Below are positions 25,731 to 63,776 of a stretch of 64,000 nucleotides of DNA, in pieces. Made by a program: the position numbers and the translations under genes. The notes beneath the pieces were generated by a model. The model worked only from the letters and a program-made list of their open reading frames with translations. It was not told the origin of the DNA and did not search any database. This DNA is from Candidatus Micrarchaeota archaeon. Lineage in GTDB: Archaea > Micrarchaeota > Micrarchaeia > Anstonellales > Anstonellaceae. The first letter of the stretch is position 1. The number at the start of each line of letters is the position of its first letter. The stretch covers positions 672 through 64,671 of the forward strand of contig CAZOMB010000004.1 of NCBI GenBank assembly GCA_964581105.1. The letters are read 5' to 3'.

Positions 25731-26834
25731 TTACCCCAATAAATCAAGGTCAAGCTCCTCAGCCTGCCCTGCTAATTGTGAAGCTTCCTTTTTCAGCTCA
25801 TAATGCGGGAATTTTGCCCCAGCAAGGACTGCCAAAACCTTGATTGAGCTCTTTTTTGCGCTTTTCTCAATCCTTGCGCCCCAAATAATGTGAGATGACG
25901 GGTCAATCCTCTTTGAGACTTCGCTCACAATAAGCTCAGCCTCCTTTAATGTCATGTCCTCCCCGCCAACAACATTGATAAGTGCCCTGCTTGCTGAAGT
26001 GACGTCAACATCCAAAAGAGGCGAATTCATTGCAGTGTCAACAGCAATAAGTGCCCGCTGGTCTGGCTTTGCCTCAACTGAAGCCTCTCCCATGCCAACA
26101 ACAGCACAGCCTGCTGCTGACAGGATTGTCCGCAAATCTGCAAAGTCAAGGTTCACAAGGCCTGCTTTTGTCACAAGCTCTGCAATCCCTTTTACAGCGC
26201 CTGCCAATACTTCGTCAGAAACCTTGAATGCTGTGTTAAGCGGAAGGTCTGGCACTATTGAGAGCAATTTGTCATTTGGTATTACAACCACTGTATCTGC
26301 ATGCTTTCTCAGTTTCTCAAGGCCTTCAAGCGCATTTTGCATCCTTATCTTCCCTTCAGATGAAAAAGGCAGGGTAACAACAGCTATTGTAAGCGCGCCT
26401 GCTGTTTTTGCATTTTCTGCTATTATGTGCGCGCTTCCTGTCCCTGTTCCTCCGCCCATTCCACAGGTAATGAAAAGCATCATTGAGTCTGACACTGCAT
26501 TTTTTATCTCAGAAGCCGACTCTTTTGCAGCAGCCTCCCCAAGCTGCGGGTTTGAGCCTGCGCCCATTCCTTTGGTTGTTTTTTTGCCAAGCAGTACTTT
26601 TTTGTCTGCCCTCATTTTCACCAAATGCTGAACATCAGTATTCATTGCAACCAATGTTACGCCGTCTATTTTCATCTCATGAAGCCTGCTCATTGTATTG
26701 CAGCCAGAGCCGCCAGCGCCAACAACAAATATGCGAGGCTTTGATGACTCTATGAACTTGAGTAGCTCCTCATCTTCCTTTGAGACAGTGACCCCTTCAG
26801 GGATCTGCTTTTCAACATTGTTCATGCTTGCCAT
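25731..26834 (-). CDS. ftsZ: Cell division GTPase FtsZ
   Basis: VVGAGGSGCNT and GMGGGTGTGSAHIIAE are the tubulin/FtsZ signatures. Confidence 0.9.
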   Translation of the reverse strand: MASMNNVEKQIPEGVTVSKEDEELLKFIESSKPRIFVVGAGGSGCNTMSRLHEMKIDGVTLVAMNTDVQHLVKMRADKKVLLGKKTTKGMGAGSNPQLGEAAAKESASEIKNAVSDSMMLFITCGMGGGTGTGSAHIIAENAKTAGALTIAVVTLPFSSEGKIRMQNALEGLEKLRKHADTVVVIPNDKLLSIVPDLPLNTAFKVSDEVLAGAVKGIAELVTKAGLVNLDFADLRTILSAAGCAVVGMGEASVEAKPDQRALIAVDTAMNSPLLDVDVTSASRALINVVGGEDMTLKEAELIVSEVSKRIDPSSHIIWGARIEKSAKKSSIKVLAVLAGAKFPHYELKKEASQLAGQAEELDLDLLG

Positions 26835-28518: not shown

Positions 28519-28640
28519 GTGTCAGCAGCAACGTGCTTTCCCGCTCACAGAGCAGTACAGGCAGTGTCGTGAGAGGGCTTAACTTCCGAGTTCGGAATGG
28601 GTTCGGGTGTTTCCCCTCTCCTATGACCGCTGACAGGCAG
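28519..28640 (-). rRNA. 5S ribosomal RNA, about 122 nt, stand-alone
   Basis: The minus-strand sequence is CUGCCUGUCAGCGG...CCGAACUCGGAAGUUAAGCCCUC...GCUGCUGACA. It has the conserved loop C/helix III core CCGAAC...GGAAGUUAAGC. Helix I is formed by UGUCAGC/GCUGACA. An AAATAAAAA TATA-like box sits about 25 nt upstream at 28655-28672. Confidence 0.8.
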
Positions 28641-28695: not shown

Positions 28696-28908
28696 TTACT
28701 CCAACTCGGACTTTTCCATTCCAACGGTTTTGATTATATGGCGCACAAGGCCGCGCTTTAGCTCCTTATGCAAAGGAATAGTGACTGGCGGCAGCTCCCT
28801 ATGGACAAGATTTACATGGCTTCCTTTCCTGCTTCGCACAACAAAGCCCTTGTACTTGATAAGAATTTTTGCCAGCTTCTCTCCGGAAACAACTGGAAGC
28901 TTAGGCAC
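28696..28908 (-). CDS. hicA: HicA-family toxin (YcfA-like mRNA interferase)
   Basis: MPKLPVVSGEKLAKILIKYKGFVVRSRKGSHVNLVH matches the HicA/YcfA pattern (...KGSHxxxxH...). It overlaps the upstream hicB by 8 nt. Confidence 0.75.
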   Translation of the reverse strand: MPKLPVVSGEKLAKILIKYKGFVVRSRKGSHVNLVHRELPPVTIPLHKELKRGLVRHIIKTVGMEKSELE

Positions 28909-29134
28909 TTAAAGACACCGTTGCTACCTGCAACTTTCCAGAATTTGCTGGTGTTTTGCGGTAGGAGCCAAGCGACTCAAGGTGCAGAAGAAGAGCCTCT
29001 TTTATGTTCTTGAGGGCACCCTTTTTGGTTTGTGCCTGGGAAAAACAGCCGGGAAGGGAAGGCACTTCTACCCAATAGCCTCCTTCGTCAGCCTTGTGCA
29101 AAACCACTTTCACATTGATTTTCTTGCCTGGCAT
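28901..29134 (-). CDS. hicB: HicB-family antitoxin (UPF0150)
   Basis: VVLHKADEGGYWVEVPSLPGCFSQAQTKKGALKNIKEALLLHLE matches the HicB N-terminal domain (...GGYxxxxPxLPGCxxxGxTxEEALxNxxEAI). Confidence 0.75.
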   Translation of the reverse strand: MPGKKINVKVVLHKADEGGYWVEVPSLPGCFSQAQTKKGALKNIKEALLLHLESLGSYRKTPANSGKLQVATVSLSA

Positions 29135-29273: not shown

Positions 29274-30080
29274 ATGATTAACGTGAAACATTATTCCTAC
29301 GGTGCCGGAGCCCTTGCAGTGCTTGGGGCAATGGGCGCATTTGTTGGAGGCACAGGGATTATTACCCTGATTTCTGGGTTTCTTTGCCTTGTTGGGGCAA
29401 TTGGCGCAGTTGCAATTTACAAATATGGCTACTTTATTGTGCCATTGCTTACTCAAAAGGGGAACATAGTACAGATAATAGAGGGCGGCTATGAAATACC
29501 GCCAACAAATGATGTTGTGCTCAAGAATGTTGGGGGAATTTACTATGCCTCAAAGTATTTGGGGGTCAGGATATATGAGTCTGCATCTGAAAAGACTGCT
29601 GAGGAAAATATTGTTTACTCTGAATATTTTGAAAGGGCAATATCATCAGTAAAGTACGTGACAAAATTCGCATTCATGGTTTACATGAAAGATGTAAGCT
29701 CTCACAGGAACAGGATTGAAACAAAGCATGCAGAGGCGCAACTCCGGCTTGCAAGGGAAAGGGACAAGCCAGACCCAGATGTATTGAAACTTGACAGGTT
29801 TGAAAAAGAAGTTGCAATGTGGGAAAACCAGATAAACAAGCTGACACGGGGCATAAAGCCAATGGGAGTCCTCTCCTATGTAATGACAACTGCAGTAGGG
29901 GTGAGCAAAGAGGCTGCAATGGCAGGCGCTGCTGCACAGGCAAAAGAGCTCAAGGCAACAATTGCAAATGCCCTGAATGTGCAGGTTGATGTGCTTACTG
30001 GAGATGAGATGCTGCGCTGCTTTCAGTGGGAAACAATGATACCTCCAACACCTGCAGAGATGGAGCAGGCAGTGCTCTGA
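29274..30080 (+). CDS. Membrane protein with two N-terminal TM helices plus a soluble domain. It is the first gene of the ATPase cluster.
   Basis: GAGALAVLGAMGAFVGGTGIITLISGFLCLVGAIGAVAIY is hydrophobic. It is followed by about 200 aa of soluble sequence. No motif is recognised. Confidence 0.45.
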   Translation: MINVKHYSYGAGALAVLGAMGAFVGGTGIITLISGFLCLVGAIGAVAIYKYGYFIVPLLTQKGNIVQIIEGGYEIPPTNDVVLKNVGGIYYASKYLGVRIYESASEKTAEENIVYSEYFERAISSVKYVTKFAFMVYMKDVSSHRNRIETKHAEAQLRLARERDKPDPDVLKLDRFEKEVAMWENQINKLTRGIKPMGVLSYVMTTAVGVSKEAAMAGAAAQAKELKATIANALNVQVDVLTGDEMLRCFQWETMIPPTPAEMEQAVL

Positions 30081-30091
30081 AGAGTGATACA

Positions 30092-31699
30092 ATGGGGCGC
30101 CTAAGTCTTTCTGGAATTGACAATGTGGATTTGGCAAGGCGGAACATATTTGTCCGCCCTCCAGAGCCTCCAGAAGACGTGCTAATGGCAGACCCGACAA
30201 ATGCAATATATGTTGGCAGGACAAAAATTTTCCATGTTCCTTTTTACTGGACTTTTCAAAAAACTACAAACCCGCACATATGCGTTGTTGGGATAACTGG
30301 CTCAGGAAAATCCTATTTTGTGAAAACATTCCTTACCAGGGCATCATATGTATGGGGAACAAATGCTTTCATAATTGACTGGGCAGGCGAATACAAGGAA
30401 TGGGTAAAGCAGGTAGGGGGAAAAGTAATCTCATTGGGCAGGGGCTCGTCAATAAACCTTCTGGATACTGGGGGCATGAAGCCAAATGACAGGATAAAAC
30501 AAGTGATGAGGACCTTGGATATTTTGACAGACATTGGAAGGTATCCAGAACAAAGAAGGCTGACAGAAATAGCAATTGAAAAGTCATATGTAAAGGCAAA
30601 ATTCAAGCTTGACTCAAAAATGCATGTGGACGGGCTTGGAAGGCCCTTAAGGCCGCCAACCCTGAAAGACGTGCAAAAGCACCTTGAGGACATGAGCGAG
30701 GCAGGCGGCTATGAGTTTCCTGCAGAGCTTGAAAATGCTATTTACAGGCTAAAGCAGTTTACAAGGGAAGGGGAGGACTTTTTTGCCAAGCACTCTACAA
30801 TTGATTTGGAAAAGTTAACAAGAGGGGGATTGGTTGACCTTGACTTGTCAGGATTGCCAGATGAGACTTTCAGGGGCCTGGCAGCTCTATCAATGCTTCA
30901 ATTCATAAAGGAAAAGATGAGGGAAGAGGGCTGGTCATCAACAAAAGGCCTGAAGCTCATGGTTGTGCTTGACGAGGCATGGAAAATTGCAAAAGATGAC
31001 AACTCTGATGCTGTAATGATTGTAAGGGAAGGAAGAAAATACCAGTTTGGTCTTATAGTTGCATCACAAAACCCAACAGACATATCTGAGGCGATTTTCT
31101 CAAACGTTGGGACAACTTTCATATTCAGGGTCAAGTTTGAAAGGTTTTTGGACTATTTGCAGAGCACTCTGAATTTCTCAGATTATATGAGGGGCGAAAT
31201 TGCAAAGTTTGGAGTGGGGCAGGCTGCTGTTAACATGGCATTTCAGACAACCTCTGACTTTTCTGACACTTTCCTTGTTGACAGGATAGAAGGAGAAGAG
31301 CCAATGCAGGAGTTTTTCCTTGACATGGAAAATGTGCTTACACAAGAGGAGCTTGCAATGGAAGGGTCCCAGCACGCAGTTTCATTTGAAAAGGACGAGC
31401 TTAAGAAAAAGCTGCGCTCATATGGCATGAGTGAGGAGCATTCTGATGAAATAGTGAGGCTGTTTGCAAAAAAGGGAAGAAGGATGGGGATTTCGCCCTT
31501 TGTAGTCCTGCTTTCCCGCTATGGGATTGCAAGGAAAAACATTTCAGCATTCTTAAAGGAGCTTGGGCTTGAGGACAATACCACTATAACCGTGCTCTCA
31601 AAGGCAAAAGAGCTTGAGATACTGCTTGGCAATGATGACATTTCAGATTACATAATAAACCCTGCTGGAGGGAAAAAAACAAAAAGAGGAAGGAGATAG
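30092..31699 (+). CDS. FtsK-HerA superfamily ATPase (HerA/VirB4/DUF87-like) with a C-terminal about 90-aa extension
   Basis: The Walker A motif is VVGITGSGKS at about 30288. Walker B is KLMVVLDEAWK. LIVASQNPTDI is the typical HerA/VirB4 arginine-finger region. The likely start is MGRLSL at 30092. Confidence 0.7.
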   Translation: MGRLSLSGIDNVDLARRNIFVRPPEPPEDVLMADPTNAIYVGRTKIFHVPFYWTFQKTTNPHICVVGITGSGKSYFVKTFLTRASYVWGTNAFIIDWAGEYKEWVKQVGGKVISLGRGSSINLLDTGGMKPNDRIKQVMRTLDILTDIGRYPEQRRLTEIAIEKSYVKAKFKLDSKMHVDGLGRPLRPPTLKDVQKHLEDMSEAGGYEFPAELENAIYRLKQFTREGEDFFAKHSTIDLEKLTRGGLVDLDLSGLPDETFRGLAALSMLQFIKEKMREEGWSSTKGLKLMVVLDEAWKIAKDDNSDAVMIVREGRKYQFGLIVASQNPTDISEAIFSNVGTTFIFRVKFERFLDYLQSTLNFSDYMRGEIAKFGVGQAAVNMAFQTTSDFSDTFLVDRIEGEEPMQEFFLDMENVLTQEELAMEGSQHAVSFEKDELKKKLRSYGMSEEHSDEIVRLFAKKGRRMGISPFVVLLSRYGIARKNISAFLKELGLEDNTTITVLSKAKELEILLGNDDISDYIINPAGGKKTKRGRR

Positions 31700-31702
31700 A
31701 AA

Positions 31703-31999
31703 ATGGCAAAAACGCTTTTCTTTGCAAAAGAGGAACTGAGAAAAAGGCTGAGGATGTTTGGCCTTGATGAGGTGCATGTGGCAGACGTGACAGGAGTGTT
31801 TGACAGGAACAACAGGCACATTGACGTTGTTTCATTCGTTATAATGATGGAGCGCTATGGAGTGCAGCGCTCAGACATCTCATCATTCCTGCATGACGTT
31901 GGGATTGATGAGAGCACAATGATAAATATATTTTCCAAGGCAGACTTCACCCGCCTTGGGGTAGGAAACAGGGAAGTCACGCAAGTGGTGCTTGCGTAA
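31703..31999 (+). CDS. Small protein homologous to the C-terminal extension of the upstream ATPase
   Basis: FAKEELRKRLRMFGLDEVHV...FVIMMERYGVQRSDISSFLHDVGIDESTMINIFSKA aligns with the ATPase tail FEKDELKKKLRSYGMSEEHS...VVLLSRYGIARKNISAFLKELGLEDNTTITVLSKA. Confidence 0.5.
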   Translation: MAKTLFFAKEELRKRLRMFGLDEVHVADVTGVFDRNNRHIDVVSFVIMMERYGVQRSDISSFLHDVGIDESTMINIFSKADFTRLGVGNREVTQVVLA

Positions 32000-32005
32000 A
32001 GAGGT

Positions 32006-32392
32006 GTGAAAATGGCAAAGGTATGCATAATTTCAGGGGAAAGGGTGCAAAAAGGCTACCCAGTGGCTGATGACTTTGTTATAAGGTCAATAAGGTCAGT
32101 GAAAAAAAGGCTTGGCATTGCAAAAAACAATACTTTGGTGGTGTCGCATGAAAAGCTTGAAGAGTACAGGAAAAAGAGGGAAAAATACGAAAAAGACCTT
32201 GTCATGCACATAGTTCTAGCCGGCTTTGTTCTTGTGCTGTTTGTGCTTTTGCCAATCTTCACAACAGGATTTTCAATAACAGCGCTTTTGCTTGGGATTG
32301 TGCTTGCAGCAATGATTGTAGGGCTTTCAGTGTTTTCCCATTGCCCAAGGATTGAGGCAAAGGGAATAGGAAAGAAAAAGAGGAAGAGGTAG
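32006..32392 (+). CDS. Small 2-TM membrane protein
   Basis: The hydrophobic hairpin is HIVLAGFVLVLFVLLPIFTTGFSITALLLGIVLAAMIVGLSVF. The tail is basic. Confidence 0.4.
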   Translation: MKMAKVCIISGERVQKGYPVADDFVIRSIRSVKKRLGIAKNNTLVVSHEKLEEYRKKREKYEKDLVMHIVLAGFVLVLFVLLPIFTTGFSITALLLGIVLAAMIVGLSVFSHCPRIEAKGIGKKKRKR

Positions 32393-32395
32393 CAA

Positions 32396-33169
32396 ATGGT
32401 CAGAATAAAACTGCCGCAAAAAGGGGGCAAGTCAAGGACTTCAAAGGCTCCGCCAAGGCCTACAAAGCCAACTGTGAGCGGCTTTAGGGTGCATGGCAAA
32501 AGGCAGGCCAACCCAAAAGAGCTTTCCAAAAAGCTTTCTGAGCTGTCATTCCTTGAGATGAGCGTTGAGGGGGATTCCCTTGCAGTGCTGAATGTGGAGT
32601 CAAGGGACATACAAAAAAATCCGTATCTGTTCTCAATAGTTTACTTTAGGCCTGCAATGATAGAGGCAACCTATACATGCCTTGCAAACATGAGCCCGAA
32701 AAAAAGAAGGATAGATGTTTTGCGGCATTTTCTCAACCTGATGACAATAACAGAAGATTGCTATGAAATTGAGATACGCGAAGTTTACCAGCTTCTTGAG
32801 GCTGCGGTTGCGCACATGACCCAGTATGTTTCTGTTGACTATGACCGGCTTTTTTCTCTTTATGACAATTTGCAGACAGAATTTTCCAGCCTGAAGAAAA
32901 AGGCTGCCGAGGCAACTGAGGCAAACGCATCGCTTTCAAAAGAAAATTATGAGCTCAAGAGCAAAAATGACGAGCTCACCCTTAAGCTTGAGTCCCTTGA
33001 AACCTTTTCAGACTCTGTGCTTTCTGTCAAAATACAGGAATGGCTCTCAGAACACAAGGGCGAGATAAATATTGCTGACTTTTCCAAGGTATACAATGTC
33101 CCTGAGACACGGGTCGAGCAGATTCTCAACAAGCTTGTGACTGAAGGCTATATTGAGACAAAAGGCTAG
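32396..33169 (+). CDS. Coiled-coil protein with a C-terminal winged-helix-like domain
   Basis: A heptad-like segment is LQTEFSSLKKKAAEATEANASLSKENYELKSKNDELTLKLESLE. The C-terminal sequence is FSKVYNVPETRVEQILNKLVTEGYIE. Confidence 0.45.
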   Translation: MVRIKLPQKGGKSRTSKAPPRPTKPTVSGFRVHGKRQANPKELSKKLSELSFLEMSVEGDSLAVLNVESRDIQKNPYLFSIVYFRPAMIEATYTCLANMSPKKRRIDVLRHFLNLMTITEDCYEIEIREVYQLLEAAVAHMTQYVSVDYDRLFSLYDNLQTEFSSLKKKAAEATEANASLSKENYELKSKNDELTLKLESLETFSDSVLSVKIQEWLSEHKGEINIADFSKVYNVPETRVEQILNKLVTEGYIETKG

Positions 33170-35786
33170 GCACAAACCAAAGGTTATTCGCATGGTTGAA
33201 AAGGACAAGCTTCTCAAGCTGAAAATTTCAAAAAACGCATATGTTTTCGACGTGAGGAGAAAGTACAATGCAAAAAGGAGCTTTAGGGTGAAAAAAAAGC
33301 CTGACACGCCTTTTGATGACTTGAAGGGAACTGCCCTTTCTCTTTTAAAGAAAAAAAAGCAGGAGAAAAAGCAAGAAAAAAAGCCAAAAGCCCCACTCGG
33401 GGCAAAGCTGCCTGAAAGCCCAAAATCTGCAATTGCAAAGACAGCTGCGATTGTTGTCCTTATTTTCATTTTACTTGGCGCTGCATTTGTATGGCTAATG
33501 CTCCAAGGGCCTGGTGCAGGGCCAGAGGAAATTGAAGCGCCTGATGTTTTCTCAGGGTCATTCGGCTATTCAATAGAGCAGTCAATGGTCCTGTCTTCCA
33601 GCCAAGAGGATGAACTTTCTAGGTCTGCCTATTTTTTGGTTGACTTTGATGCAAGGAACCTTGGCGGGCTTAACTTTTCTGCATCTGTTTTCTCGCAAAA
33701 GCCCTCAGTCCAGGTATTTTTGCTTGACTATGCAAGGGACAGCGCTGACTCCTACCCTGTTTTCAGGAGGAATTTGATTGACAAGCTTAAAGAGAATGGG
33801 ATTTCTGTGAATGAGATAGACATTGAGGCGCTTTCTTCTTTGCCAGGAGGCGCCCTGGTTGTTGTGCCAACAGGCTATTTGCCAAAAGAGCTTTTGGGAA
33901 TTGGCAGCCAGCTTGACTTCAAAAAGCTTCTTTCGAGAGGGGTAACAATAGTTTACATTGGAAGGGAATTTGACTCGCTTGCCCTTGACCAGGCAGGCTC
34001 AGCAATCCCTGTTTCTTATAATGAGCTTTTGTTTGCAAAATCAAAGCCAGAGTCAGAGGATGGGTTTGGGCTGTATGACGCCCAGTATGTTGTTGGCCAG
34101 ATTGCAGGAAGAAATGACATTGACCTGGCTTTTTTTGGCAAAATATATGGCTCTGTTTCAGTCATAGGAAACAAAAACGGCTCTATTTTGTTCCTTCCCC
34201 AGTCGCTTGACGGAGGCTGGAGAACAGACGGCAAGGCAGCTGCACAAGATGTTGTAAGGCTTATAACAGAGGAAAGATGGCTTTCGCTTATTGCCTATGC
34301 CTCAAAGGAGATTGACCTTGAGGAAGAGCAATCAGGCATGGTGTCACTTTACTCAACCAGTTTTCCCAGTGACTCTGCGTATGTGAAATTCACTGCAAAA
34401 GCGCTTGACCTTGAGGGTAATGAAAGAAGCTCAACAGAAGTTCTCAAGCTAAAGAAAGTCCAGAAAGGGGAAATGACCCAGCCTGAGCCTGAGGCAGTCC
34501 CATATTACCTTTCAGGAGAGAGGACCAGGTTTAACATAGAGCTTAGGGAAACAGACCCCACGCCTGTAAAGCTTTATATCAGCATGTACAAGGACGGAAC
34601 TGAGCTTCAGCGCTCTGACCTTGAGCTTGGCCTTACAAACCCAACAATAGACAAGTCAGTTGATTTTCAGGTAAATGCAGAGCCAGGAAATTACACTGCA
34701 TATGTGGTAAACTCAAAAGGCAAAATATATGCTGCAACAAGGCTGGATGTTATTGACCTGCAAATATACACAAACAGCAGCGACTGGCAGCAAGGGAAGT
34801 TCACTTTCCTTCTTTCTGCAGCAGGAAAGCCTGTTGTTCCGCGCAGCCTTTCAATCTCCCTGGATGGGAAAGGGAAAAGGCAATACACCCCCTCTTCATT
34901 CGCATACTCAGGAACAAGCACTGCCATAACTTATGAATATGCAGGGGAGATAAAGCCTGGCTTGCATGAATTCATTTTTACTGCAGGCGACTGGAGCAAA
35001 AAATATGAGCAGGATTATTTTGCTGCCAAAAACTTTTGGGAAAACCCTGTTGTTATTTTTCTTGCAATTGTCTCGTTGGCTGTTTTTGGAATAGGCCTTA
35101 GCCTAAGAAGGCCAGAAGTCCTGAGATATGGGCTTGATGTTCCGGACTTTCCCCCTCTTTCAACAATAAAAATACCTGTGAAAAAGGAAACTGTGCTCGA
35201 TATACTTGACACTGTTAATGCCTCTTACTCATGGAAATGGATGCCGCTTGGCACTGATGAGATAAAAAAAGGCTTTAGAAAGCTGACTTACAACGGCAAG
35301 CCCATCCTAATAGGGGACTTTAACCTTGACATGGTGCTTGTCAAGCTTCGGGATGCCGGGCTTGTTAAAGAGGAGCTTGGCTATTGGGGCAGGGCTGAAT
35401 GGGAAAAGCAAAGCAACCATTCAATGCATTACCTTGCAATGTACAGGATTTTGCGCAATGTATTTGTGAACAATGCTGTGAAATTCTCAAAGCTGGATGC
35501 AATGAATGACTGTGACATAAAGGCAATTGTAGGGAAAGAAAGGCTGTATCTCCACATAATGGAAGAGCCAAAGGAAAGGGTTGTGCACAGGGCGCTTGCA
35601 ACCTCTGGCAAGGGCAAGACACTCATAGTATTCAGGTCAAAAGATGAGGCATCCTCCTTCCGCTCTTCTCTTACCTCAACCTCAAGGCTTGCTGTCGGGC
35701 TTAAGATGGAGGTCAACAGCAGGAACATATTGCTGCTTCCTGTGAAAAGAGGGGTTTCCGGGTATTTGAGGGGCCTTTCAAGGTAG
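33153..35786 (+). CDS. Large bitopic membrane protein of 877 aa. It has a basic N-terminus, TM1, an extracytoplasmic domain of about 470 aa, TM2 and a C-terminal cytoplasmic domain of about 230 aa.
   Basis: The hydrophobic helices are AAIVVLIFILLGAAFVWLML and VVIFLAIVSLAVFGIGLSL. It overlaps the upstream gene, which suggests translational coupling. Confidence 0.5.
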   Translation: MRQKARHKPKVIRMVEKDKLLKLKISKNAYVFDVRRKYNAKRSFRVKKKPDTPFDDLKGTALSLLKKKKQEKKQEKKPKAPLGAKLPESPKSAIAKTAAIVVLIFILLGAAFVWLMLQGPGAGPEEIEAPDVFSGSFGYSIEQSMVLSSSQEDELSRSAYFLVDFDARNLGGLNFSASVFSQKPSVQVFLLDYARDSADSYPVFRRNLIDKLKENGISVNEIDIEALSSLPGGALVVVPTGYLPKELLGIGSQLDFKKLLSRGVTIVYIGREFDSLALDQAGSAIPVSYNELLFAKSKPESEDGFGLYDAQYVVGQIAGRNDIDLAFFGKIYGSVSVIGNKNGSILFLPQSLDGGWRTDGKAAAQDVVRLITEERWLSLIAYASKEIDLEEEQSGMVSLYSTSFPSDSAYVKFTAKALDLEGNERSSTEVLKLKKVQKGEMTQPEPEAVPYYLSGERTRFNIELRETDPTPVKLYISMYKDGTELQRSDLELGLTNPTIDKSVDFQVNAEPGNYTAYVVNSKGKIYAATRLDVIDLQIYTNSSDWQQGKFTFLLSAAGKPVVPRSLSISLDGKGKRQYTPSSFAYSGTSTAITYEYAGEIKPGLHEFIFTAGDWSKKYEQDYFAAKNFWENPVVIFLAIVSLAVFGIGLSLRRPEVLRYGLDVPDFPPLSTIKIPVKKETVLDILDTVNASYSWKWMPLGTDEIKKGFRKLTYNGKPILIGDFNLDMVLVKLRDAGLVKEELGYWGRAEWEKQSNHSMHYLAMYRILRNVFVNNAVKFSKLDAMNDCDIKAIVGKERLYLHIMEEPKERVVHRALATSGKGKTLIVFRSKDEASSFRSSLTSTSRLAVGLKMEVNSRNILLLPVKRGVSGYLRGLSR

Positions 35787-53898: not shown

Positions 53899-55593
53899 AT
53901 GAAAGAATCAACAAAGCTCAAGTATGAGCTCAAAAAGCAGCTTGCCCATTTGCGCGGCATGAAAGGCAGTGGAACTGAGCTGATATCAGTTTACATACCT
54001 GCAAACCAGGCAGTGCATGAGACCTCAAGCAAGCTTAAGGGGGAATCAGGCCAGGCATCAAACATAAAGAGCAAAAGCACAAGGAAAAATGTAGGAGACG
54101 CGCTTGAGAAGATAATTCATCATTTGAAAAGCTATGGAAACAAGGCGCCAAGCACAGGGGTTGCAATATTTTGCGGCAATGTTTCTGACAGCCCTGCAAA
54201 AACAGACATTTCTCTTTTCACTGTGTTTCCCCCTGAGCCGTTGGGAGTCCAGCTTTACCGCTGTGACTCTCGCTTTTTCTTGGAGCCGCTTGAAAGGATG
54301 CTGGAATCAGACGAAACATACGGGCTTGTAGTGCTTGACGGAAGGGAATGCACAATTGCAGAGCTTCGGGGGACAGTTGTCAGGACATTGCACAGGCTAA
54401 ACTCCACTGCGCATGCAAAAATCCGGAAGGGAGGACAATGCCTTGCGCCTGATACTCTTGTTCAGACTTCAGATGGTGAGCTGGTACCTGTTTCTGAGGT
54501 TGTCCCGGGAATTAAAATAAAAGGAGCAGATTTGTCAAAGCTTAAGATATGCGATTGGGAGTGTTCCGACAAATTCAAAACAAAGTCAAAAAAAGCATAT
54601 AGGATAGCTGTTCAGAACTCAAAGATGGAAATTGTCGCAACTGCATGGCATCGGTTCTTTACAGTCGGAAAAAAAGGCATTGAAGAAATCTATGCAAAAA
54701 ACTTGAAGATAGGAAGTGTTCTACTTATTGCCAGAAAAGCGTTCAAGAATGACCCTGACACAAAGCATGGTGAGCCATCTGAAAAAATGCTCAAAAAATG
54801 GCTGTCTGAAGACATTGGAGTGGCAAGAGTGGCAAAACTAATACCAATAGAAGGAGAAAAAGAATATATTGACCTTACTGTGCCAAATGCATTCAACTTT
54901 GTGGCAAATGGCTTTATTGTGCACAACAGCGCCCGCAGATATGAGAGACTGATTGAAGAGTCAATTGAAAAGTATTACAAAAGGGTGGGAGTGTCAATGG
55001 ACAGGTATTTTGTTAACAAGGTAAAAGGAGTGATAGTTGGAGGCCCTGGCCCCACAAAGGAGAATTTTGTGAAAATGTCGCCATTTAATTACCAGATAAA
55101 AGTGCTTGGAGTGGTTGACACTGGCTATACTGATGACTATGGGGTAAGGGAGGTAATGGCAAAAAGCAAGGACATTATAGCAGAGCAGGCTGCAATAAAG
55201 GAAAAAGCGCTTGTTGAAAGGTTCATAAAAGAAGTTGTGTCAAACGGGCTTGCCACTTATGGGGAAAAAGAAGTAAGGCAAGCCTTAAAGGTAAAAAAGG
55301 CATCAAAGCTGCTTGTATCAGAAGGCTTGGAATACAAGAGGGCAAAGCTTGTTGATACTACTACAAAAGAAGTTCATTATGCAACCACAAAAAGCCCTTC
55401 TGAGCTTGAGGAAAAAATAAAGAAAATTGGCGGCACAGTAAAAGTTGAGGAGCAAATACCGCTTATTGATGACTTGATTGCCCTTGCTGAGGAAAAGAAC
55501 ATTGAAGTAATTGTAATTTCCCCTGACACTGCAGAAGGAGCGCAATTTTTAGGCTCATTTTACGGCATAGGCGCATTTTTGAGGTACCGCTAG
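53899..55593 (+). CDS. prf1: Peptide chain release factor aRF1 precursor interrupted by a mini-intein
   Basis: The N-terminal GSGTELISVYIP and the GGQ motif are present. The C-terminus ...FLGSFYGIGAFLRYR is typical aRF1. The extein lengths sum to about 401 aa. Confidence 0.85.
   Translation: MKESTKLKYELKKQLAHLRGMKGSGTELISVYIPANQAVHETSSKLKGESGQASNIKSKSTRKNVGDALEKIIHHLKSYGNKAPSTGVAIFCGNVSDSPAKTDISLFTVFPPEPLGVQLYRCDSRFFLEPLERMLESDETYGLVVLDGRECTIAELRGTVVRTLHRLNSTAHAKIRKGGQCLAPDTLVQTSDGELVPVSEVVPGIKIKGADLSKLKICDWECSDKFKTKSKKAYRIAVQNSKMEIVATAWHRFFTVGKKGIEEIYAKNLKIGSVLLIARKAFKNDPDTKHGEPSEKMLKKWLSEDIGVARVAKLIPIEGEKEYIDLTVPNAFNFVANGFIVHNSARRYERLIEESIEKYYKRVGVSMDRYFVNKVKGVIVGGPGPTKENFVKMSPFNYQIKVLGVVDTGYTDDYGVREVMAKSKDIIAEQAAIKEKALVERFIKEVVSNGLATYGEKEVRQALKVKKASKLLVSEGLEYKRAKLVDTTTKEVHYATTKSPSELEEKIKKIGGTVKVEEQIPLIDDLIALAEEKNIEVIVISPDTAEGAQFLGSFYGIGAFLRYR
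54439..54927 (+). mobile_element. Mini-intein (163 aa) inserted directly after the GGQ motif of aRF1
   Basis: In KIRKGGQ|CLAPDTLV... the intein starts with Cys (block A). VATAWHRFF is block B TxxH. It ends ...NFVANGFIVHN|SARRYERL, with HN plus a +1 Ser (block G). There is no homing-endonuclease domain. Confidence 0.75.
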
Positions 55594-56546
55594 CGTTTCC
55601 CAAGAGAAGTAGGCATGTTAAGCCCAGTGAAAATTGCCATTGCCTGAAGCTTGCCTGCAAAGCTTTCTTCCATCCTTGCGCCATAAATTACATTTGCATG
55701 CGGGTCTATCTGCTCTGTCAAAAGCTCTCCTGCCCTTGTTGCATCGCCAAGCGTCAGGTCAGCACCGCCTGTAATATGCAAAAGAACGCCTTTTGAGCCT
55801 TCTATGTCAACGTCAAGCAGCCTGTTTTTCAGAGTGTTTTTCACCAAATCATCCACCCTTCCAACGCCAGCTGCCTCGCCAACTGCAATCATTGAAATTC
55901 CTCCCCCTTGTGCAACTGTCCTGACATCCATATAATCCAGATTCAGAAGGGATGGCTCAAGTATGGTTTTTGAAATGCATCTTACAGCCCTTGCCATTAT
56001 CTCGTCAAGAAGCTCAAATGACTTTTCAATTGGCATGTTAGGCGCATACTCTAAAAGGCGGTTGTTGTCAATAAGCACAAGTGTGTCTGCAACTTTTTTC
56101 AGGTTTTCAATTCCTTGCTGAGCCTTTTGCAGCCTTGCCCTTTCAATTGTAAAAGGATAAGTTACAAATGCTATTACTATTGCGCCCTGCTCTTTTGCTA
56201 TTTGGGCAATAACCGGAGATGCGCCTGTTCCAGTTCCGCCCCCCATTCCGCATGTTATGAAAACAAGGTCTTTGTCAGACAGTATTTCCTGTATTTTCCT
56301 TTTTGAAGAGGTTGCTGCCTTTGCTGCAACCTCAGGAAAGCCCCCAGCCCCAAGGCCTCTTGTGACTGCCCCTCCGATAAGGCAGCGCTTTGCCTTTTCA
56401 GAAACAATGTTAAGGTGCTTTTTGTCTGTATTAAACGCTGCAAGCTCTGTTTTTCCAACTCCCATCCTGACTAGCCTGTTTATTGTGTTGCAGCCTGCTC
56501 CTCCAACTCCTGCTACTGCGATTGCTGGCTTGCCTTCCTCATCCAT
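55590..56546 (-). CDS. FtsZ/tubulin-family GTPase (second paralog, FtsZ2/CetZ-like, 318 aa)
   Basis: AVAGVGGAGCNT and GMGGGTGTGASPVIAQ are the tubulin/FtsZ signatures. Confidence 0.8.
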   Translation of the reverse strand: MDEEGKPAIAVAGVGGAGCNTINRLVRMGVGKTELAAFNTDKKHLNIVSEKAKRCLIGGAVTRGLGAGGFPEVAAKAATSSKRKIQEILSDKDLVFITCGMGGGTGTGASPVIAQIAKEQGAIVIAFVTYPFTIERARLQKAQQGIENLKKVADTLVLIDNNRLLEYAPNMPIEKSFELLDEIMARAVRCISKTILEPSLLNLDYMDVRTVAQGGGISMIAVGEAAGVGRVDDLVKNTLKNRLLDVDIEGSKGVLLHITGGADLTLGDATRAGELLTEQIDPHANVIYGARMEESFAGKLQAMAIFTGLNMPTSLGKR

Positions 56547-58702: not shown

Positions 58703-59032
58703 TTGGGAAAAATTGCATTCATACTTTCCGCAGCCCTTTTGCTGAATGTCCTGGCAGCAGCTACAATGCTTACCTCTGTCCAGGAAGCAGTTTCAGAGAT
58801 GTGCATAAGCCTGAAAAGCCTTTTGCCAGTGGTTGCAATGACAATGCTTATCCTCGGCGGGGTAATTTATGCTGCTGGGCAGATGATGGGTGCTGAGACA
58901 AGGGCAAGGGGAAATGTGTGGGCAACTGCCTGCTTAACAGGGGCATTGATTGCAATCCTCATAGTAATAGTCGCACAGCCTGTTCTTCAGATGATTTACG
59001 GTGACCTTGGCACAGTTGCCTGCGAGCTTTAG
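58703..59032 (+). CDS. Small secreted 2-TM protein, VirB2/TrbC-pilin-like architecture (paralog 1)
   Basis: A signal-like N-terminus is followed by two hydrophobic helices separated by the conserved loop AAGQMMGAETRARGNVWATA. Confidence 0.5.
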   Translation: MGKIAFILSAALLLNVLAAATMLTSVQEAVSEMCISLKSLLPVVAMTMLILGGVIYAAGQMMGAETRARGNVWATACLTGALIAILIVIVAQPVLQMIYGDLGTVACEL

Positions 59033-59100
59033 GGGAGCCGGCTCCAGTGCAGTTTAAAAAGATTAGCAACATTATTTTCTATAACAGATAAAGGAGGGAT

Positions 59101-59454
59101 TTGATGAGAAAATTAATGGTATTTGTGATGTTTGCAATGCTGGCAGCAACAGTTTTTGCCCAGACAGTTCCAACAAGTAGGATCTACGATGCAGCTGAGG
59201 CCTTGTACTGCGGACTTCGAGACGTCCTCCCAGTAATTGCAATGCTTATGATAATCGTTGCAGGAGTGATTTATGCTGCTGGGCAGATGATGGGTGCTGA
59301 GACAAGGGCAAGGGCAAATGTATGGGCAACTGCTGCTCTTACAGGAGCATTGATTGCAATACTGATTGTTGTAATTGCACCTTCTGTGTTCAGCATAATT
59401 TACGGAACAGGTTGGGAAGTGCCACCATGTTCTGGAATAACTTCAAGAAACTAG
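59101..59454 (+). CDS. Small secreted 2-TM protein, VirB2/TrbC-pilin-like architecture (paralog 2)
   Basis: It shares VIYAAGQMMGAETRARANVWATAALTGALIAILIV nearly identically with paralog 1. Confidence 0.5.
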   Translation: MMRKLMVFVMFAMLAATVFAQTVPTSRIYDAAEALYCGLRDVLPVIAMLMIIVAGVIYAAGQMMGAETRARANVWATAALTGALIAILIVVIAPSVFSIIYGTGWEVPPCSGITSRN

Positions 59455-60953: not shown

Positions 60954-63776
60954 TTAGCAGACTTGTTCTGGGTCTGGGCACACAGGGTTTTGGCCTGGGC
61001 AGTCTGAGCATGGGTACTCGTCTTTCCATGCAGTTACTGGTCCAATGCAGCAGCAGCCATATGTGACCTGATTCATGCCGATTGAATAATACATGCTGTC
61101 AGTTTCAGCATATTTGCAGGTAGTATAGCACTGCTCTTCTGTCAATGCATTAAGCGCATCTTCAAGGTCTTGGTCTATTTTTGCCTCGCATGCCAGCCTG
61201 TCATTTTCGCCTTGTGCATATGAGTCAAGAGCATATGCAGAGCATTCTGCTGCGCAGTTTACAGGCACTGGGTCGCAGGCATCTCCTATTCCATCACTGT
61301 CTCGGTCACCTTGGCCTGGGTTGTAATCTCCTGGGCAGTTGTCATAGTCATCGCATACATTGTCCTCATCAGTGTCAATGCATACGCACAGGCAGTTTTC
61401 GCACACTTCATCCTGCATACAGTCTGAAGTCTCTTCGCACTCTTCACCGCCGTAGATTATGCCGTCGCCGCAATAAAGCTCATAATTGCACTCTGTGCAG
61501 TCAGCTGAGCAGCTGCCTTGTATTGTCTGGCCCTGCATTTGCATTATGCAGTCTGCATCGCTTTCACATGCCTCGCCTGACTCCAGTATTTGGTTGCCGC
61601 ACTCTGCTGCAGGAAGCTCACATGTGCAATACTCGCTGCAATATGCTTCTGCGCTGCACAAGCCAGTGTCATTGCCGTCGCACTCCTCTGTGCCTTCCCT
61701 GACCCCGTTTCCGCACTCTTGCACTGCTTCCTGGCACTGGTAATCATATGTGCATAAGTCCTGCCCAGTGCCTGATATGTTCACGCAGGCGCCGTTCAGG
61801 CATTCTTTGTGATAATTGACTGTTTCATTCGCCTGCTTTTTTGTGCATGTGCATGAGCTTGCATGGCACTCATAAGCTGCTCCTGTCATCCTGTCACAGT
61901 CATCTATGCAGGTCATTGTGCCAAGCTTGAAGTTGTTTATGTCTGTTTGTATTACTTCCCCTGTATTGTCTGCGCAGCTCACTTCCTCTCTCTTTGTGCA
62001 TGTGCATGAGCTTGCATAGCACTCATAAGCAGAGCCAAGCTGCTTTACACAGTCATCCTTGCAGGTCATTTTGCTTGCGTCAAAGTCATTTACATCTGTT
62101 TCAATCACTTTTGCAGTATGCTCTGCGCAGCTCACTGGCTCTTCTTCTGGCTTTTTGGTACAGGTGCATGAACCAGTGTTGCACTCATACTCATCTCCAA
62201 GAACGCTCTTGCAGTCATCTTTGCAGATTTGCGGCGGCTTAAAAGTATTCTTGTCTGTTGCATCAACTTTTTGTGTATTTGTTGCGCAGCTTATTGTTTC
62301 ATTCTTAGGAGTTTCGTTCTGTGGTGGTGTTTCATTTTTTGGGGGCTGCTCTTCCTTTCTGCAAACGCATGGAGGTATTATGCATTTCTCAGCCGGGTCT
62401 AAGCAAGGAATGCCAACTTCGCATTCCTCAAACCATTCAAGCACCTTGTTGCCGCACCATGCTTCCTCCTGAGGATAGCACATGCAGTCAAGCCAGCATA
62501 TGTCGGCTGCGTTTGGGCATGGGATTCCGACTTCGCACTGCTCAGGCGGCTGCAGCACCTTGTCCCCGCAATATGGGCCTGGCTTTCTAAGCTCGCGAAG
62601 CGGGCTGACTGCTGGGTTTCTTTCATATGAATTCATCAGAAGAGGGTCAAGCTGTGCTGGGGCTGACCACATTCCTGCCTCAAGGTATGAGTAATATATC
62701 TCTCCAGGGGGAATTGTCTGGCCCCACCATACAACAAGGCCAATTGACCTGTCTTTTATGAATACTAGCGACGGCCTGTCATCAGAATCAGAAAGCCCTG
62801 ATGAGACCAAAGCCTCTGCTGCAGGCGAATTAACGTCAGGCTGGTGGAATATGTCCTTGCCTTTTGCAAATGCGCTGTTTGCCTTTTCAGAAGCAGAGTA
62901 ATAAACGTCTGGCATTGCTCCGCTTGCAAATTTGCTTGGTGTTGCTCCAAGCTTCACAGAGTAAACAGTGCCAGAGTCAGGGTAAACTGCTGTTGTTTCC
63001 TTTTTTGTCTTTGCTGCTGCAATTCCTGTCCTTTGGTCTGTTGGCACATTGTTGTCAACAACAGCTGAGCCTGAGACTGCAACTGCATTTGACCATGCGT
63101 TTACTGCATATACTGCTGCATGCGCACCTTTGTTGCTTGTGAAAACAAGGTAATAGCCTCCATCATACTCGCTGTATGTGAGTTCAGGCAGGGAAACTTT
63201 TTCCACTTCGCCAATGTCTATCTTTTTTGGCAATGTCCAGTCTTTGCTGCTTACATAATAGGAATAGTAAAGCTCCTTGTTATTTCTCACCCATACTGCA
63301 AGTGCGTCTCCTGATGGGCCCACTGCAACTGTTGGGTCAGTGCCAATTGCGCTTTCCTTTATTTTTGCAGGAGGGTACCAGGCGTCATTTTGCCATATTG
63401 AATAGTAAATCATGCTCTGGCTGCTGTGCTCTTTTGACCAGACTGCAACCGCTGTCTTAAGATTTGAGGATACGTCAGGGTCATGGTCATTTCCAAAGTC
63501 AACTGCAATTGGCTTTGAGGTCTTGCCTGTGCTTGTATACCATGCTTTTGCGTCATGGTCCCAAAGGGAATACCAGATGTCAAATGTCTCATCCTTGTGC
63601 TGCCATACTGCTATTGCATCAGGAGACCTATCCTCTGAAACCTGAAGATATGGGCACCCTGACAAAAAAACAAAAGCAAGCACAGCAGAAATTAGAATTA
63701 TACCCTTGGCATACAAGCAAAACCACCCCGCACGAGATAGATTGAATGACAAAACCTTAAAAAGCCTGTGCTGCAT
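60954..63776 (-). CDS. Large secreted/lipoprotein-like Cys-rich surface protein with a W-rich repeat domain, tandem Cys-rich repeats and a TSP3-like Ca-binding repeat
   Basis: The N-terminus has a TM/lipobox-like LSGC. Three AVW...YYS.W...AW units follow. Three tandem copies of about 50 aa follow the pattern SCA..T..V..TD.N.F......C.DDC....G..YEC...SCTCTK. The motif CGNKVLEWFEECEVGIPC appears twice. DNCPGDYNPGQGDRDSDGIGDACDP is thrombospondin-type-3-like. Confidence 0.6.
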   Translation of the reverse strand: MQHRLFKVLSFNLSRAGWFCLYAKGIILISAVLAFVFLSGCPYLQVSEDRSPDAIAVWQHKDETFDIWYSLWDHDAKAWYTSTGKTSKPIAVDFGNDHDPDVSSNLKTAVAVWSKEHSSQSMIYYSIWQNDAWYPPAKIKESAIGTDPTVAVGPSGDALAVWVRNNKELYYSYYVSSKDWTLPKKIDIGEVEKVSLPELTYSEYDGGYYLVFTSNKGAHAAVYAVNAWSNAVAVSGSAVVDNNVPTDQRTGIAAAKTKKETTAVYPDSGTVYSVKLGATPSKFASGAMPDVYYSASEKANSAFAKGKDIFHQPDVNSPAAEALVSSGLSDSDDRPSLVFIKDRSIGLVVWWGQTIPPGEIYYSYLEAGMWSAPAQLDPLLMNSYERNPAVSPLRELRKPGPYCGDKVLQPPEQCEVGIPCPNAADICWLDCMCYPQEEAWCGNKVLEWFEECEVGIPCLDPAEKCIIPPCVCRKEEQPPKNETPPQNETPKNETISCATNTQKVDATDKNTFKPPQICKDDCKSVLGDEYECNTGSCTCTKKPEEEPVSCAEHTAKVIETDVNDFDASKMTCKDDCVKQLGSAYECYASSCTCTKREEVSCADNTGEVIQTDINNFKLGTMTCIDDCDRMTGAAYECHASSCTCTKKQANETVNYHKECLNGACVNISGTGQDLCTYDYQCQEAVQECGNGVREGTEECDGNDTGLCSAEAYCSEYCTCELPAAECGNQILESGEACESDADCIMQMQGQTIQGSCSADCTECNYELYCGDGIIYGGEECEETSDCMQDEVCENCLCVCIDTDEDNVCDDYDNCPGDYNPGQGDRDSDGIGDACDPVPVNCAAECSAYALDSYAQGENDRLACEAKIDQDLEDALNALTEEQCYTTCKYAETDSMYYSIGMNQVTYGCCCIGPVTAWKDEYPCSDCPGQNPVCPDPEQVC
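61830..62295 (-). repeat. Three tandem coding repeats of about 150 bp inside the 940-aa gene
   Basis: There is DNA-level repetition, e.g. tgtgcatgtgcatgagcttgcat(g/a)gcactcataagc at about 61845 and about 61998. Coordinates are approximate. Confidence 0.6.

Follow-up and report, generated by a model that had tools for sequence, protein, structure and literature searches.

A free-standing paralogue of an ATPase tail domain in Micrarchaeota, with a probable origin as a nested gene

The 98-aa gene that directly follows an ATPase gene in the window (the whole analysed stretch of 64,000 nucleotides from a Candidatus Micrarchaeota archaeon) encodes a second copy of the C-terminal tail domain of that ATPase (Table 1). 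Most relatives of the ATPase lack this separate gene nearby and carry instead an in-frame start codon, preceded by a Shine-Dalgarno (SD)-like motif, at the boundary between the motor and its tail. We consider it probable that the ATPase family as a whole holds an ancient nested gene, un-nested by duplication at least seven times and once by fission, whose product would be a free subunit of a T4SS-like machine. For the window itself, we hold it somewhat probable that the 98-aa gene is at once a tandem duplicate of the tail domain of a VirB4/HerA-like ATPase, a descendant of such a nested start, and the source of a free domain that co-assembles with the tethered one.

Table 1. Features of the ATPase locus and of the pilin candidates in the window.
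Feature	Coordinates	Strand	Basis
268-aa membrane protein, conserved partner upstream of the ATPase	29274..30080	+	Homologues directly upstream of the ATPase in 150 loci
HerA/FtsK/VirB4-superfamily ATPase, 535 aa, with C-terminal tail domain of ~90 aa	30092..31699	+	Pfam, homologue alignment
In-frame ATG (Met445, 'AMEG')	31358..31360	+	3 codons upstream of the internal start position of fused-only relatives
Fused tail-domain copy	31385..31657	+	33% identity over 91 aa with the free protein
Shine-Dalgarno-like GAGGAAGGAGA of the free gene	31686..31696	+	Within the last ATPase codons (..RGRR*), read from the sequence
Free-standing tail-domain copy, 98 aa	31703..31999	+	89 homologues at 69-100% identity
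128-aa membrane protein, conserved operon member	32006..32392	+	Homologues downstream of the ATPase in 108 loci
257-aa protein, coiled coil and weak C-terminal winged-helix-like match	32396..33169	+	Homologues in 112 loci
877-aa membrane protein, conserved operon member	33153..35786	+	Homologues in 90 loci, same position
Two tandem VirB2/TrbC-like pilin candidates, 109 and 117 aa	58703..59454	+	HMM match; 27 kb from the ATPase

The original prediction, that the ATPase tail and the small downstream ORF align along their whole length, is borne out: in BLASTP the ATPase C-terminus (31352-31699) and the 98-aa ORF (31703-31999) match over 91 residues without a gap, with 30 identities (33%), 67% positives and E=3e-24. 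Set against shuffled controls, by which that prediction was to stand or fall, the Smith-Waterman score of 186 stands far above that of 2000 shuffles (26.0 +/- 4.6, maximum 52; z=34.8). Nucleotide identity is 51% (52, 69 and 32% at codon positions 1, 2 and 3); the saturation of third positions rules out a recent repeat or an assembly artefact as the origin of the pair, which by these measures is an old duplication maintained at the protein level. Both copies are under purifying selection. Homologues of the free protein form 89 cluster representatives (69-100% identity), and 60 of these have a length of exactly 98 aa; the tail is found in all 118 of 118 near-full-length ATPase homologues, where it is less conserved than the core; and within the window's clade identity is 0.79 among free copies, 0.71 among fused copies and 0.90 among ATPase cores. 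The free copy of this clade is also closer to the tails of relatives that have only the fused domain (0.63 vs 0.51 for the fused copy), and the fused copy forms a long branch in the domain tree, a pattern which identifies the fused copy as the diverged paralogue and the free copy as the keeper of the ancestral-type sequence. The free gene has signals of its own, namely an AGGAG 7 nt before its ATG at 31703 and an SD duplex energy of -8.4 kcal/mol. It is short, matches no family and begins 3 nt after the ATPase stop (TAG, 31697-31699), and might for these reasons be taken for the decaying leftover of a duplication, or for a functionless artefact of annotation; we find this hardly credible, and conservation effectively refutes it, given the number and constant length of the homologues, the saturated third positions, the proper SD and start, a conservation above that of the fused copy and the recurrence of free copies in 7 independent clades.

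Do other clusters keep both copies, the question raised with the original prediction? Some do and others do not: 42 loci have the free gene, and 88 de-duplicated loci are fused-only, meaning that no free gene lies within 7-10 kb either side of the ATPase. These ~130 related loci form our comparison set, and in it the fused-only arrangement is both ancestral and commonest: no separate gene, and an SD-like motif with an ATG, GTG or TTG in frame at the motor/tail boundary. At the position of Met1 of the free protein, 84 of the 88 fused-only loci have an aligned start codon in register, and all 88 have one within 2 codons; among the 42 loci with a free gene the numbers are 7 and 13, respectively (Fisher p=3e-19, with loci treated without phylogenetic correction). 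Raw counts at this position in fused-only loci are ATG 54, GTG 31 and TTG 3; valine there is always GTG and leucine always TTG, whereas elsewhere in the genes GTG makes up 36% of Val codons. L083 (GTT) and L089 (GTA) look like exceptions, but in both the alignment is shifted and an ATG lies two codons downstream. The same usage extends to very distant relatives (~30% ATPase identity; found with a full-length ATPase profile search), whose non-Met residues are encoded by GTG (L085, L086, L088) or TTG (L087, L090).

The start codons come with a matching SD-like motif. The predicted duplex with the 3' end of 16S rRNA is -10.5 kcal/mol at the internal start vs -3.7 +/- 2.7 at other in-frame positions (median percentile 1.4%), at least as strong as at the real starts of free genes (-7.7). 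Compared with synonymous recodings of the same peptide, it is stronger in 80 of 88 loci (-10.2 vs -7.2; Wilcoxon p=5e-15, loci again treated without phylogenetic correction), and it persists where the linker peptide is not conserved. Fused-only loci thus display two marks expected of a nested gene: a conserved boundary start codon that the amino acid alone does not explain and, in the form of the predicted SD, a ribosome-binding site upstream of it. A plainer reading is that the free copy is a neofunctionalised paralogue which took a new job, the boundary Met, Val or Leu of fused-only relatives being structural and no free domain being made there. Part of the conservation at the start position could indeed be structural, since the aligned residue is still mostly hydrophobic (I, L, V, F) in duplicate lineages; the first residues form a short strand (E4-6) in the AF2 model, the G-[GD]-x-M motif resembles a beta-turn, and the 'G-[GDE]-x-M' motif of the distant relatives could be such a turn rather than an SD imprint alone. 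Structure leaves the choice of codons unexplained, however: all 31 valines are GTG and all 3 leucines TTG, while duplicate clades use ATA, CTT, GTA, GTC, GTT, ATT, TTC and CTG at the same place. Together with a motif that exceeds its synonymous recodings, even where the linker varies, and with the loss of the start after each of 7 independent duplications, this makes the structural explanation quite improbable.

The duplications themselves point the same way as the codons. Fitch parsimony on a neighbour-joining (NJ) tree of ATPase cores gives 7 independent transitions from fused-only to duplicate with a fused-only root, that is, duplication of the tail region in the window's lineage and at least 6 other times, the downstream copy becoming an independent gene each time. 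By comparison, this downstream copy is translationally coupled and retains the ancestral sequence, including its C-terminal '..ITQVVLA' segment, while the fused copy lost the internal start and diverged or was truncated at its C-terminus (in the window it is also more basic). In the domain tree, likewise NJ, free copies cluster with fused-only tails; the fused copies found in duplicate lineages sit on long branches and have lost their last 15-20 residues. In each of the 7 duplicate clades, most or all members no longer have the start in register. A further locus, L171, is split: a tail-less ATPase is followed by a 123-aa gene for the free domain (E=2.4e-12). A single old duplication followed by losses was considered and rejected, because free copies cluster with tails from their own fused-only relatives and 7 gains are counted by parsimony; NJ trees and rate asymmetry leave some doubt on this rejection. 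The best reading of these sequences would be an ancient nested gene repeatedly un-nested by tandem duplication. They indicate that a free form of the domain may be required throughout the ATPase family, supplied by an internal start or by a separate gene.

In the window's clade the loss of internal initiation is probably not clean, given that an in-frame ATG at 31358 persists. The window has TCC at the aligned ancestral start position; the nearby ATG is kept in the clade, with a weak and variable SD-like match (mean -6.3 kcal/mol, range -2.1 to -12.2), and is a possible, weak residual internal start.

What does the tail domain look like? Neither the free protein nor any of 35 diverse tails scanned matches a Pfam or NCBIfam model above threshold, and the domain occurs only with this ATPase family, throughout which it is found, in agreement with the expectation that a module both fused to the motor and made separately would be specific to this system. 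Sub-threshold matches are to AIF-1, NOD2_WH, DUF3867, UBA_3 and RecX_HTH2. The AF2 model of the free protein (pLDDT 78) has five helices and two short strands, with residues 88-98 disordered; that of the full-length ATPase (pLDDT 60, the tail region alone 80-88) is too poor for a fold search and for judging how the tail docks. With its helix-loop-helix units and two short paired strands, the monomer model resembles EF-hand pair lobes such as the C-lobe of calmodulin and AIF-1, and the tail-domain profile repeatedly matches calmodulin residues ~99-147 (E 4e-4 to 1e-2) and AIF-1 (best E=6.4e-5, 19.4 bits vs a cut-off of 50). Membership in the EF-hand family was nevertheless rejected: the AIF-1 score lies below the cut-off, the calmodulin matches are weak, and loop position 12, read by eye in the alignment, is S, V, K or F in most members. 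Ca2+ binding is unlikely because the conserved acidic residue is absent from this position. Foldseek with the monomer model returned no significant structural neighbour, EF-hand included.

We hypothesize that two proteins are made from a fused-only gene, the complete ATPase and a separate tail domain of ~10-11 kDa, as an in-frame internal start at the boundary would imply. A nested gene that is un-nested by tandem duplication in turn suggests that the free and the tethered domain act jointly: on the cytoplasmic side of the ATPase oligomer, the free domain would join the tethered ones as a pairing partner, an adaptor or a platform, by analogy with SctQ-C and SctQ of type III secretion. The ratio of free to tethered domains would depend on the internal start or on the separate gene. 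The homo- or hetero-oligomerisation raised by the original prediction may take place. Alternatively, the free protein might be a regulator or competitor: the tail, with the FtsK gamma domain as a comparison, would bind a ligand, a peptide or a nucleic acid, and the free copy would titrate it or block docking and so tune the motor. The charges of the two copies in the window would suit this, the fused one being basic (KKGRR, C-terminal KKTKRGRR) and the free one about neutral as read from the sequences, as would the conservation of two distinct copies and a weak, non-significant likeness to helix-turn-helix or three-helix proteins (RecX, Mor, MarR-type) and to EF-hand lobes. No DNA-binding family was matched significantly, however, and a family-wide need for the free form suits a stoichiometric partner at least as well, so that we regard a regulator as unlikely.

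Co-assembly as a subunit would place the free domain in a larger apparatus. The ATPase is, from its sequence, a member of the HerA/FtsK/VirB4 superfamily: it scores 53.1 bits on AAA_10 (gathering 27.5), 49.5 on DUF87 (23.2) and 37.7 on the TraG P-loop domain (25.8), and its Walker motifs GITGSGKSY and VVLDEAW are invariant in the alignment. Its nearest solved sequences are HerA proteins first and VirB4 second. VirB4-type NCBIfam models stay far below their cut-offs (TIGR00929 39.4 bits vs 643, TraC 64.7 vs 567), as does the HerA model, and the N-terminal CagE/TrbE/VirB (VirB4) domain was not found in Pfam and NCBIfam scans. The CedB and CedD equivalogs of NCBIfam, at 75.8 bits (cut-off 700) and 72.8 bits (600), likewise fall short of membership, so that likeness to CedB/CedD holds at the superfamily level only. 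The start of the ATPase is most likely the ATG at 30092, which is preceded by a GAGTGAT motif, rather than the GTG at 30026 that opens the mechanical ORF, given that homologues begin to align at Met23 of that ORF; this gives a length of 535 aa. A search of the literature for a VirB4-like system in DPANN archaea or Micrarchaeota, or for the tail domain, found nothing specific.

The predicted ATPase operon has five genes, including membrane proteins, and is conserved across Micrarchaeota (DPANN archaea). Its 268-aa membrane protein has no Pfam family in our scan, and homologues reach even the most distant operons (E 1e-8 to 1e-41). The 128- and 877-aa membrane proteins match no Pfam or NCBIfam family; the 257-aa protein, with weak Rrf2 and TrmB matches below the Pfam cut-off, is related to a gene downstream of the ATPase in the distant operons (E=2e-11). 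Rfam and tRNA scans of the locus gave no RNA element. Pilin-like genes complete the picture: in the distant operons the first gene exceeds the PF18895 T4SS_pilin cut-off in L089 (30.2 vs 26.6) and comes close to it in L086 (25.2), and an HMM of this gene matches the 109- and 117-aa proteins of the window (E=2.6e-12 and 7.7e-13), the latter of which reaches 25.4 bits on Pfam TrbC/VirB2 (E=1.6e-5), below the gathering score of 27.9. As for a polytopic channel protein of the VirB6/CedA type, a hydrophobic protein of ~345 aa without a Pfam match is conserved after the pilin gene in the distant operons; no homologue of it was found in the window. We propose that the ATPase belongs to a Micrarchaeota-wide, membrane-associated T4SS/Ced-like apparatus.

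If this is true, the sampled genomes of these symbiotic archaea hide a ~10-11 kDa subunit of a T4SS-like machine, and most Micrarchaeota genomes are predicted to encode a small protein that is not annotated. In annotation terms, what would be called a 'hypothetical 98-aa protein' is probably a genuine subunit of the ATPase machine. The need for a free and a tethered domain would have been met in three ways, by an internal start, a duplicate gene and a fission, and the ~7 transitions would amount to a natural experiment on how overlapping genes evolve and how duplicates subfunctionalise, in effect a series of natural replicates of the un-nesting of a nested gene. This also singles out the tail domain as one that should matter for a conserved T4SS/Ced-like apparatus of host-dependent DPANN archaea.

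Small accessory domains on a flexible linker behind a HerA/FtsK-class motor are familiar from the FtsK gamma domain and the C-terminal winged helix of TraB. The tail domain differs from these in having no sequence or fold similarity to them, and its free copy is not basic; no gamma domain is known to be produced on its own. With VirB4, TraC and TrbE of bacterial type IV secretion, the window ATPase shares the superfamily's P-loop core (AAA_10, TraG P-loop), an association with membrane proteins and possibly one with pilin-like proteins; it differs in that the VirB4 N-terminal domain is undetected and the NCBIfam models score far below their cut-offs. Also comparable are the Ced and Ted systems of Crenarchaeota, reduced chromosomal T4SS-derived machines for DNA import with a VirB4/HerA-like ATPase and VirB2-like pilins (PMC9905601, PMC11868833). 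Among their components (the ATPases CedB, CedD and TedB, the pilins CedA1 and TedC), CedB and CedD give the window ATPase its highest NCBIfam scores, and the VirB2-like pilin candidates may be a common element; there are also a number of differences: (i), the window ATPase scores at about one tenth of the equivalog cut-offs; (ii), the 268-, 128-, 257- and 877-aa partners have no detectable Ced/Ted counterparts; (iii), no such C-terminal domain or nested gene was found mentioned in the Ced/Ted papers (PMC9905601, PMC11868833).

A precedent for the nested gene itself comes from type III secretion: SctQ (YscQ, SpaO, Spa33, HrcQ) is a cytoplasmic machine component whose C-terminal domain is in addition produced separately, from an internal in-frame start, and the SctQ-C product of YscQ/SctQ binds to the full-length protein and is required for assembly (PMC4295842). 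In the flagellar FliM/FliN pair the separate domain comes from a paralogous gene, FliN; both solutions appear to occur within the single ATPase family described here. The domains are unrelated in fold and family, SPOA domains in SctQ and FliN and a helical, possibly EF-hand-like domain in the ATPase, and the carriers differ: a C-ring or pod protein there, and here, in archaea, the motor ATPase itself.

The C-terminal ~90-aa tail of the ATPase and the free 98-aa protein encoded downstream are homologous along their length, as the original prediction held: BLASTP of the 98-aa protein against the 115 C-terminal residues of the ATPase aligns 91 residues without gaps, 33% identical and 67% positive (E=3e-24), and the local alignment score is 186 versus 26 +/- 4.6 in 2000 shuffles (z=35). 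DNA identity between the copies is 51%, and 32% at third codon positions, so the duplication is old and selection at the protein level has kept it. The Shine-Dalgarno (SD) sequence of the free gene lies inside the last ATPase codons, a translational coupling signal. Cluster representatives of the free protein number 89 (69-100% identical, nearly all 98-99 aa); their sources name them as hypothetical proteins only, from Candidatus Micrarchaeota or Anstonellaceae. Two antisense ORFs (57-83 aa) span the junction of the domain copies; they have low-complexity, Cys/Leu/Ser-rich translations, and we took them as spurious.

The tail is present in 118/118 close ATPase homologues and in 76 of the 85 aligned distant full-length representatives. 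Searching the stop-to-stop ORFs of retrieved loci with domain HMMs revealed three states: (i), fused-only, 88 de-duplicated loci where the ATPase has its tail and a free copy is absent within 7-10 kb; (ii), duplicate, 42 loci where a free gene lies next to the tailed ATPase on its downstream side; (iii), a single locus (L171) where the ATPase lacks the tail and a 123-aa gene for the free domain (E=2.4e-12) comes after it. Within that range, homologous clusters keep both copies at the 42 duplicate loci and not at the 88 fused-only ones. L171 may be a mobile element, given its neighbours: an IS605 OrfB/Cas12f-like gene, an N6/N4 methyltransferase and a T2SSE-like ATPase. Two long proteins, P0210 (1196 aa) and P0211 (1026 aa), join ATPase and tail to extra N- or C-terminal sequence and may be gene fusions or read-through calls.

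On a neighbour-joining tree of ATPase cores, the duplicate loci form 7 separate clades, and Fitch parsimony places the fused-only state at the root with 7 changes to the duplicate state. In the domain tree, free copies adjoin the tails of their fused-only relatives; in duplicate lineages the fused copies sit on long branches. In the window's clade the free copy is more similar to fused-only tails than the fused copy (0.63 vs 0.51), with identities of 0.79 free-free, 0.71 fused-fused and 0.90 for the ATPase core. The last 15-20 residues of the fused copy ('..ADFKRLG..ITQVILE') are lost in duplicate clades C1-C3 and rewritten in the window's clade. Asymmetric divergence of the fused copy, paralogy, both-copy conservation and operon context are established by the comparisons.

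Fused-only tails open 'MAK[ST]..', as the free protein does, and the codon aligned to its Met1 is ATG, GTG or TTG (raw counts 54, 31 and 3). A start codon is in register in 84/88 de-duplicated fused-only loci and at most two codons off in 88/88; the four out-of-register loci include L083 and L089, where apparent GTT/GTA are alignment shifts with ATG two codons downstream. Where Val is aligned its codon is GTG, although GTG accounts for only 36% of the Val codons in the rest of these genes. Among the most distant relatives, the boundary motif is G-[GDES]-x-M; apart from L089, the non-Met cases with retrieved DNA are GTG (L085, L086, L088) or TTG (L087, L090). Duplicate loci carry ATA, ATT, ATC, CTT, CTC, CTG, GTA, GTC, GTT, TTC, TTT, GCN and others in this column, with an in-register start in 7/42 free-gene loci versus 84/88 fused-only loci (Fisher p=3e-19, uncorrected for phylogeny), and the start is lost in most or all members of each of the 7 independent duplicate clades.

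The internal start is preceded, 3-7 nt upstream, by a G-rich SD-like motif (GGAGG, GAGGG, GGTGAT, AGGTGA), which persists despite completely different linker peptides. Paired with the 16S 3' end, the site has a duplex energy of -10.5 kcal/mol, where other in-frame positions have -3.7 +/- 2.7 (median percentile 1.4%); it is at least as strong as true free-gene starts (-7.7). When its seven codons are recoded synonymously, the pairing is weaker than in the real sequence in 80/88 loci (-7.2 vs -10.2, Wilcoxon p=5e-15). Alternatively, the boundary Met could be purely structural, which is hard to reconcile with these codon and SD data. In the window, the ancestral position reads TCC; an in-frame ATG three codons upstream ('AMEG') is conserved in its clade, with a weak, variable SD (mean -6.3).

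Features of the window and of related loci (L-numbers)
Feature	Position	Strand	Remark
ATPase ORF	30026-31699	+	probable true start ATG 30092
In-frame ATG	31358		'AMEG'
Free-domain ORF	31703-31999	+	98 aa; starts 3 nt past ATPase stop
Antisense ORFs	31584-31835, 31643-31821	-	taken as spurious
Pilin-like pair	58703-59032, 59101-59454	+	VirB2/TrbC resemblance
5S rRNA gene	28520-28634	-	Rfam 78 bits
HicA/HicB-like pair	28696-28908, 28901-29134	-	overlapping
FtsZ paralogues	25731-26834, 55590-56546	-	
Cys-rich protein	60954-63776	-	940 aa
~745-aa P-loop proteins	L084:10948-13200, L086:9240-11507, L087:5464-7680, L090:8382-10595		at distant operon ends
FtsZ gene	L086:2057-3094		
Split state	L171:2353-4111		tail-less ATPase relative (450 aa) and 123-aa tail-domain gene

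More than 1000 relatives of the ATPase were identified; the best 120 are 63-100% identical and come from Micrarchaeota. It passes the Pfam AAA_10, DUF87 and TraG P-loop models, matches the NCBIfam CedB, CedD, TraC, VirB4 and HerA models far below their cut-offs, and its nearest solved sequences are HerA proteins, then VirB4; it is thus a member of the HerA/FtsK/VirB4 superfamily and the equivalog of no named ATPase. Of 80 species-level Micrarchaeota loci, 67-76 keep the order [268-aa membrane protein]-[ATPase]-([free domain])-[128-aa membrane protein]-[257 aa]-[877-aa membrane protein]; contig ends account for the remainder. Distant ATPases (360-510 aa, roughly 30% identical; source names Micrarchaeia, Micrarchaeaceae, Bilamarchaeaceae and two 'Marsarchaeota') have their own conserved operon, [~125 aa]-[~345 aa]-[~243 aa]-ATPase-[~220]-[~200]-[~62]-[~95]-[~745 aa], whose ~243-aa protein is homologous to the window's 268-aa protein (E 1e-8 to 1e-19). 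Its ~125-aa protein is VirB2/TrbC-like (the L089 member passes PF18895) and is matched by two window genes, 27 kb from the ATPase, for tandem paralogous small membrane proteins with a common motif, GVIYAAGQMMGAETRAR; no VirB6-like gene was seen beside this pair (58703-59454). The ~745-aa protein has a P-loop, scores 21.5 bits with Pfam Zot, just above gathering, and weakly matches HerA_C; it may serve as a second motor or as the analogue of a coupling protein. Its positional counterpart in the window, the 877-aa protein, has no Walker A motif and no similarity to it. Such operon content, including the VirB2/TrbC-like genes, points to a chromosomal, T4SS-derived apparatus resembling Ced/Ted, in which archaea use domesticated T4SS parts (PMC9905601; PMC11868833); literature searches found no description of such an apparatus in Micrarchaeota.

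Just upstream of the cluster region lies a 5S rRNA gene; no tRNA genes were found across the 64-kb window. The stretch from the 5S rRNA gene to the ATPase operon, which in distant relatives is occupied by the pilin and ~345-aa genes, holds a small ORF pair resembling, by eye, HicA/HicB-type toxin-antitoxin genes. FtsZ genes, two paralogues in the window and one close to the L086 ATPase operon, may recur by chance. The window also encodes a secreted-looking protein with numerous Cys-rich repeats (CxxxC motifs, repeated 'SCTCTKK').

AF2 models the free protein (pLDDT 78, pTM 0.63) as one short strand, four helices accompanied by another short strand, and a long fifth helix; the conserved C-terminal residues 88-98 are disordered. 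Foldseek of the model against the PDB gave nothing significant. A profile of 35 diverse tails repeatedly but weakly matches the calmodulin C-lobe (E 4e-4 to 1e-2) and also, weakly, topoisomerase V HhH repeats; Pfam matches (AIF-1, NOD2_WH, UBA_3, RecX) are all sub-threshold. An EF-hand-pair-like N-terminal half is a lead rather than a result, and Ca2+-ligating position 12 of the loop is not conserved.

The comparison of loci establishes an internal start signal conserved in fused-only genes and lost after duplication. The simplest reading of these sequences is that the ATPase gene ancestrally held a nested gene for the free domain, so that a fused-only gene would yield two proteins, and that the internal start was no longer maintained once a separate gene supplied the domain. 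The window locus is one instance of this broader pattern, of which literature searches found no description. The proposal that the tail is an oligomerisation or adaptor module is supported in part, the module being both fused and separate at 42 loci; co-assembly with the ATPase is argued by analogy. We hypothesize that free and tethered domains assemble together on the oligomeric motor, the free one as partner, adaptor or platform, with its conserved disordered C-terminus perhaps docking onto a partner; alternatively, the free copy could be titrating or regulatory. Release of a C-terminal domain by an internal in-frame start occurs in CheA and others. The same is already known for SctQ, and SctQ/SctQ-C and FliM/FliN are the models for co-assembly of a free domain with the full-length protein (PMC4295842). 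What distinguishes Micrarchaeota from the known cases is that the carrier is the VirB4/HerA-like motor ATPase itself, that the domain belongs to no family, and that the arrangement spans a whole archaeal phylum, with the nested gene apparently resolved repeatedly by duplication.
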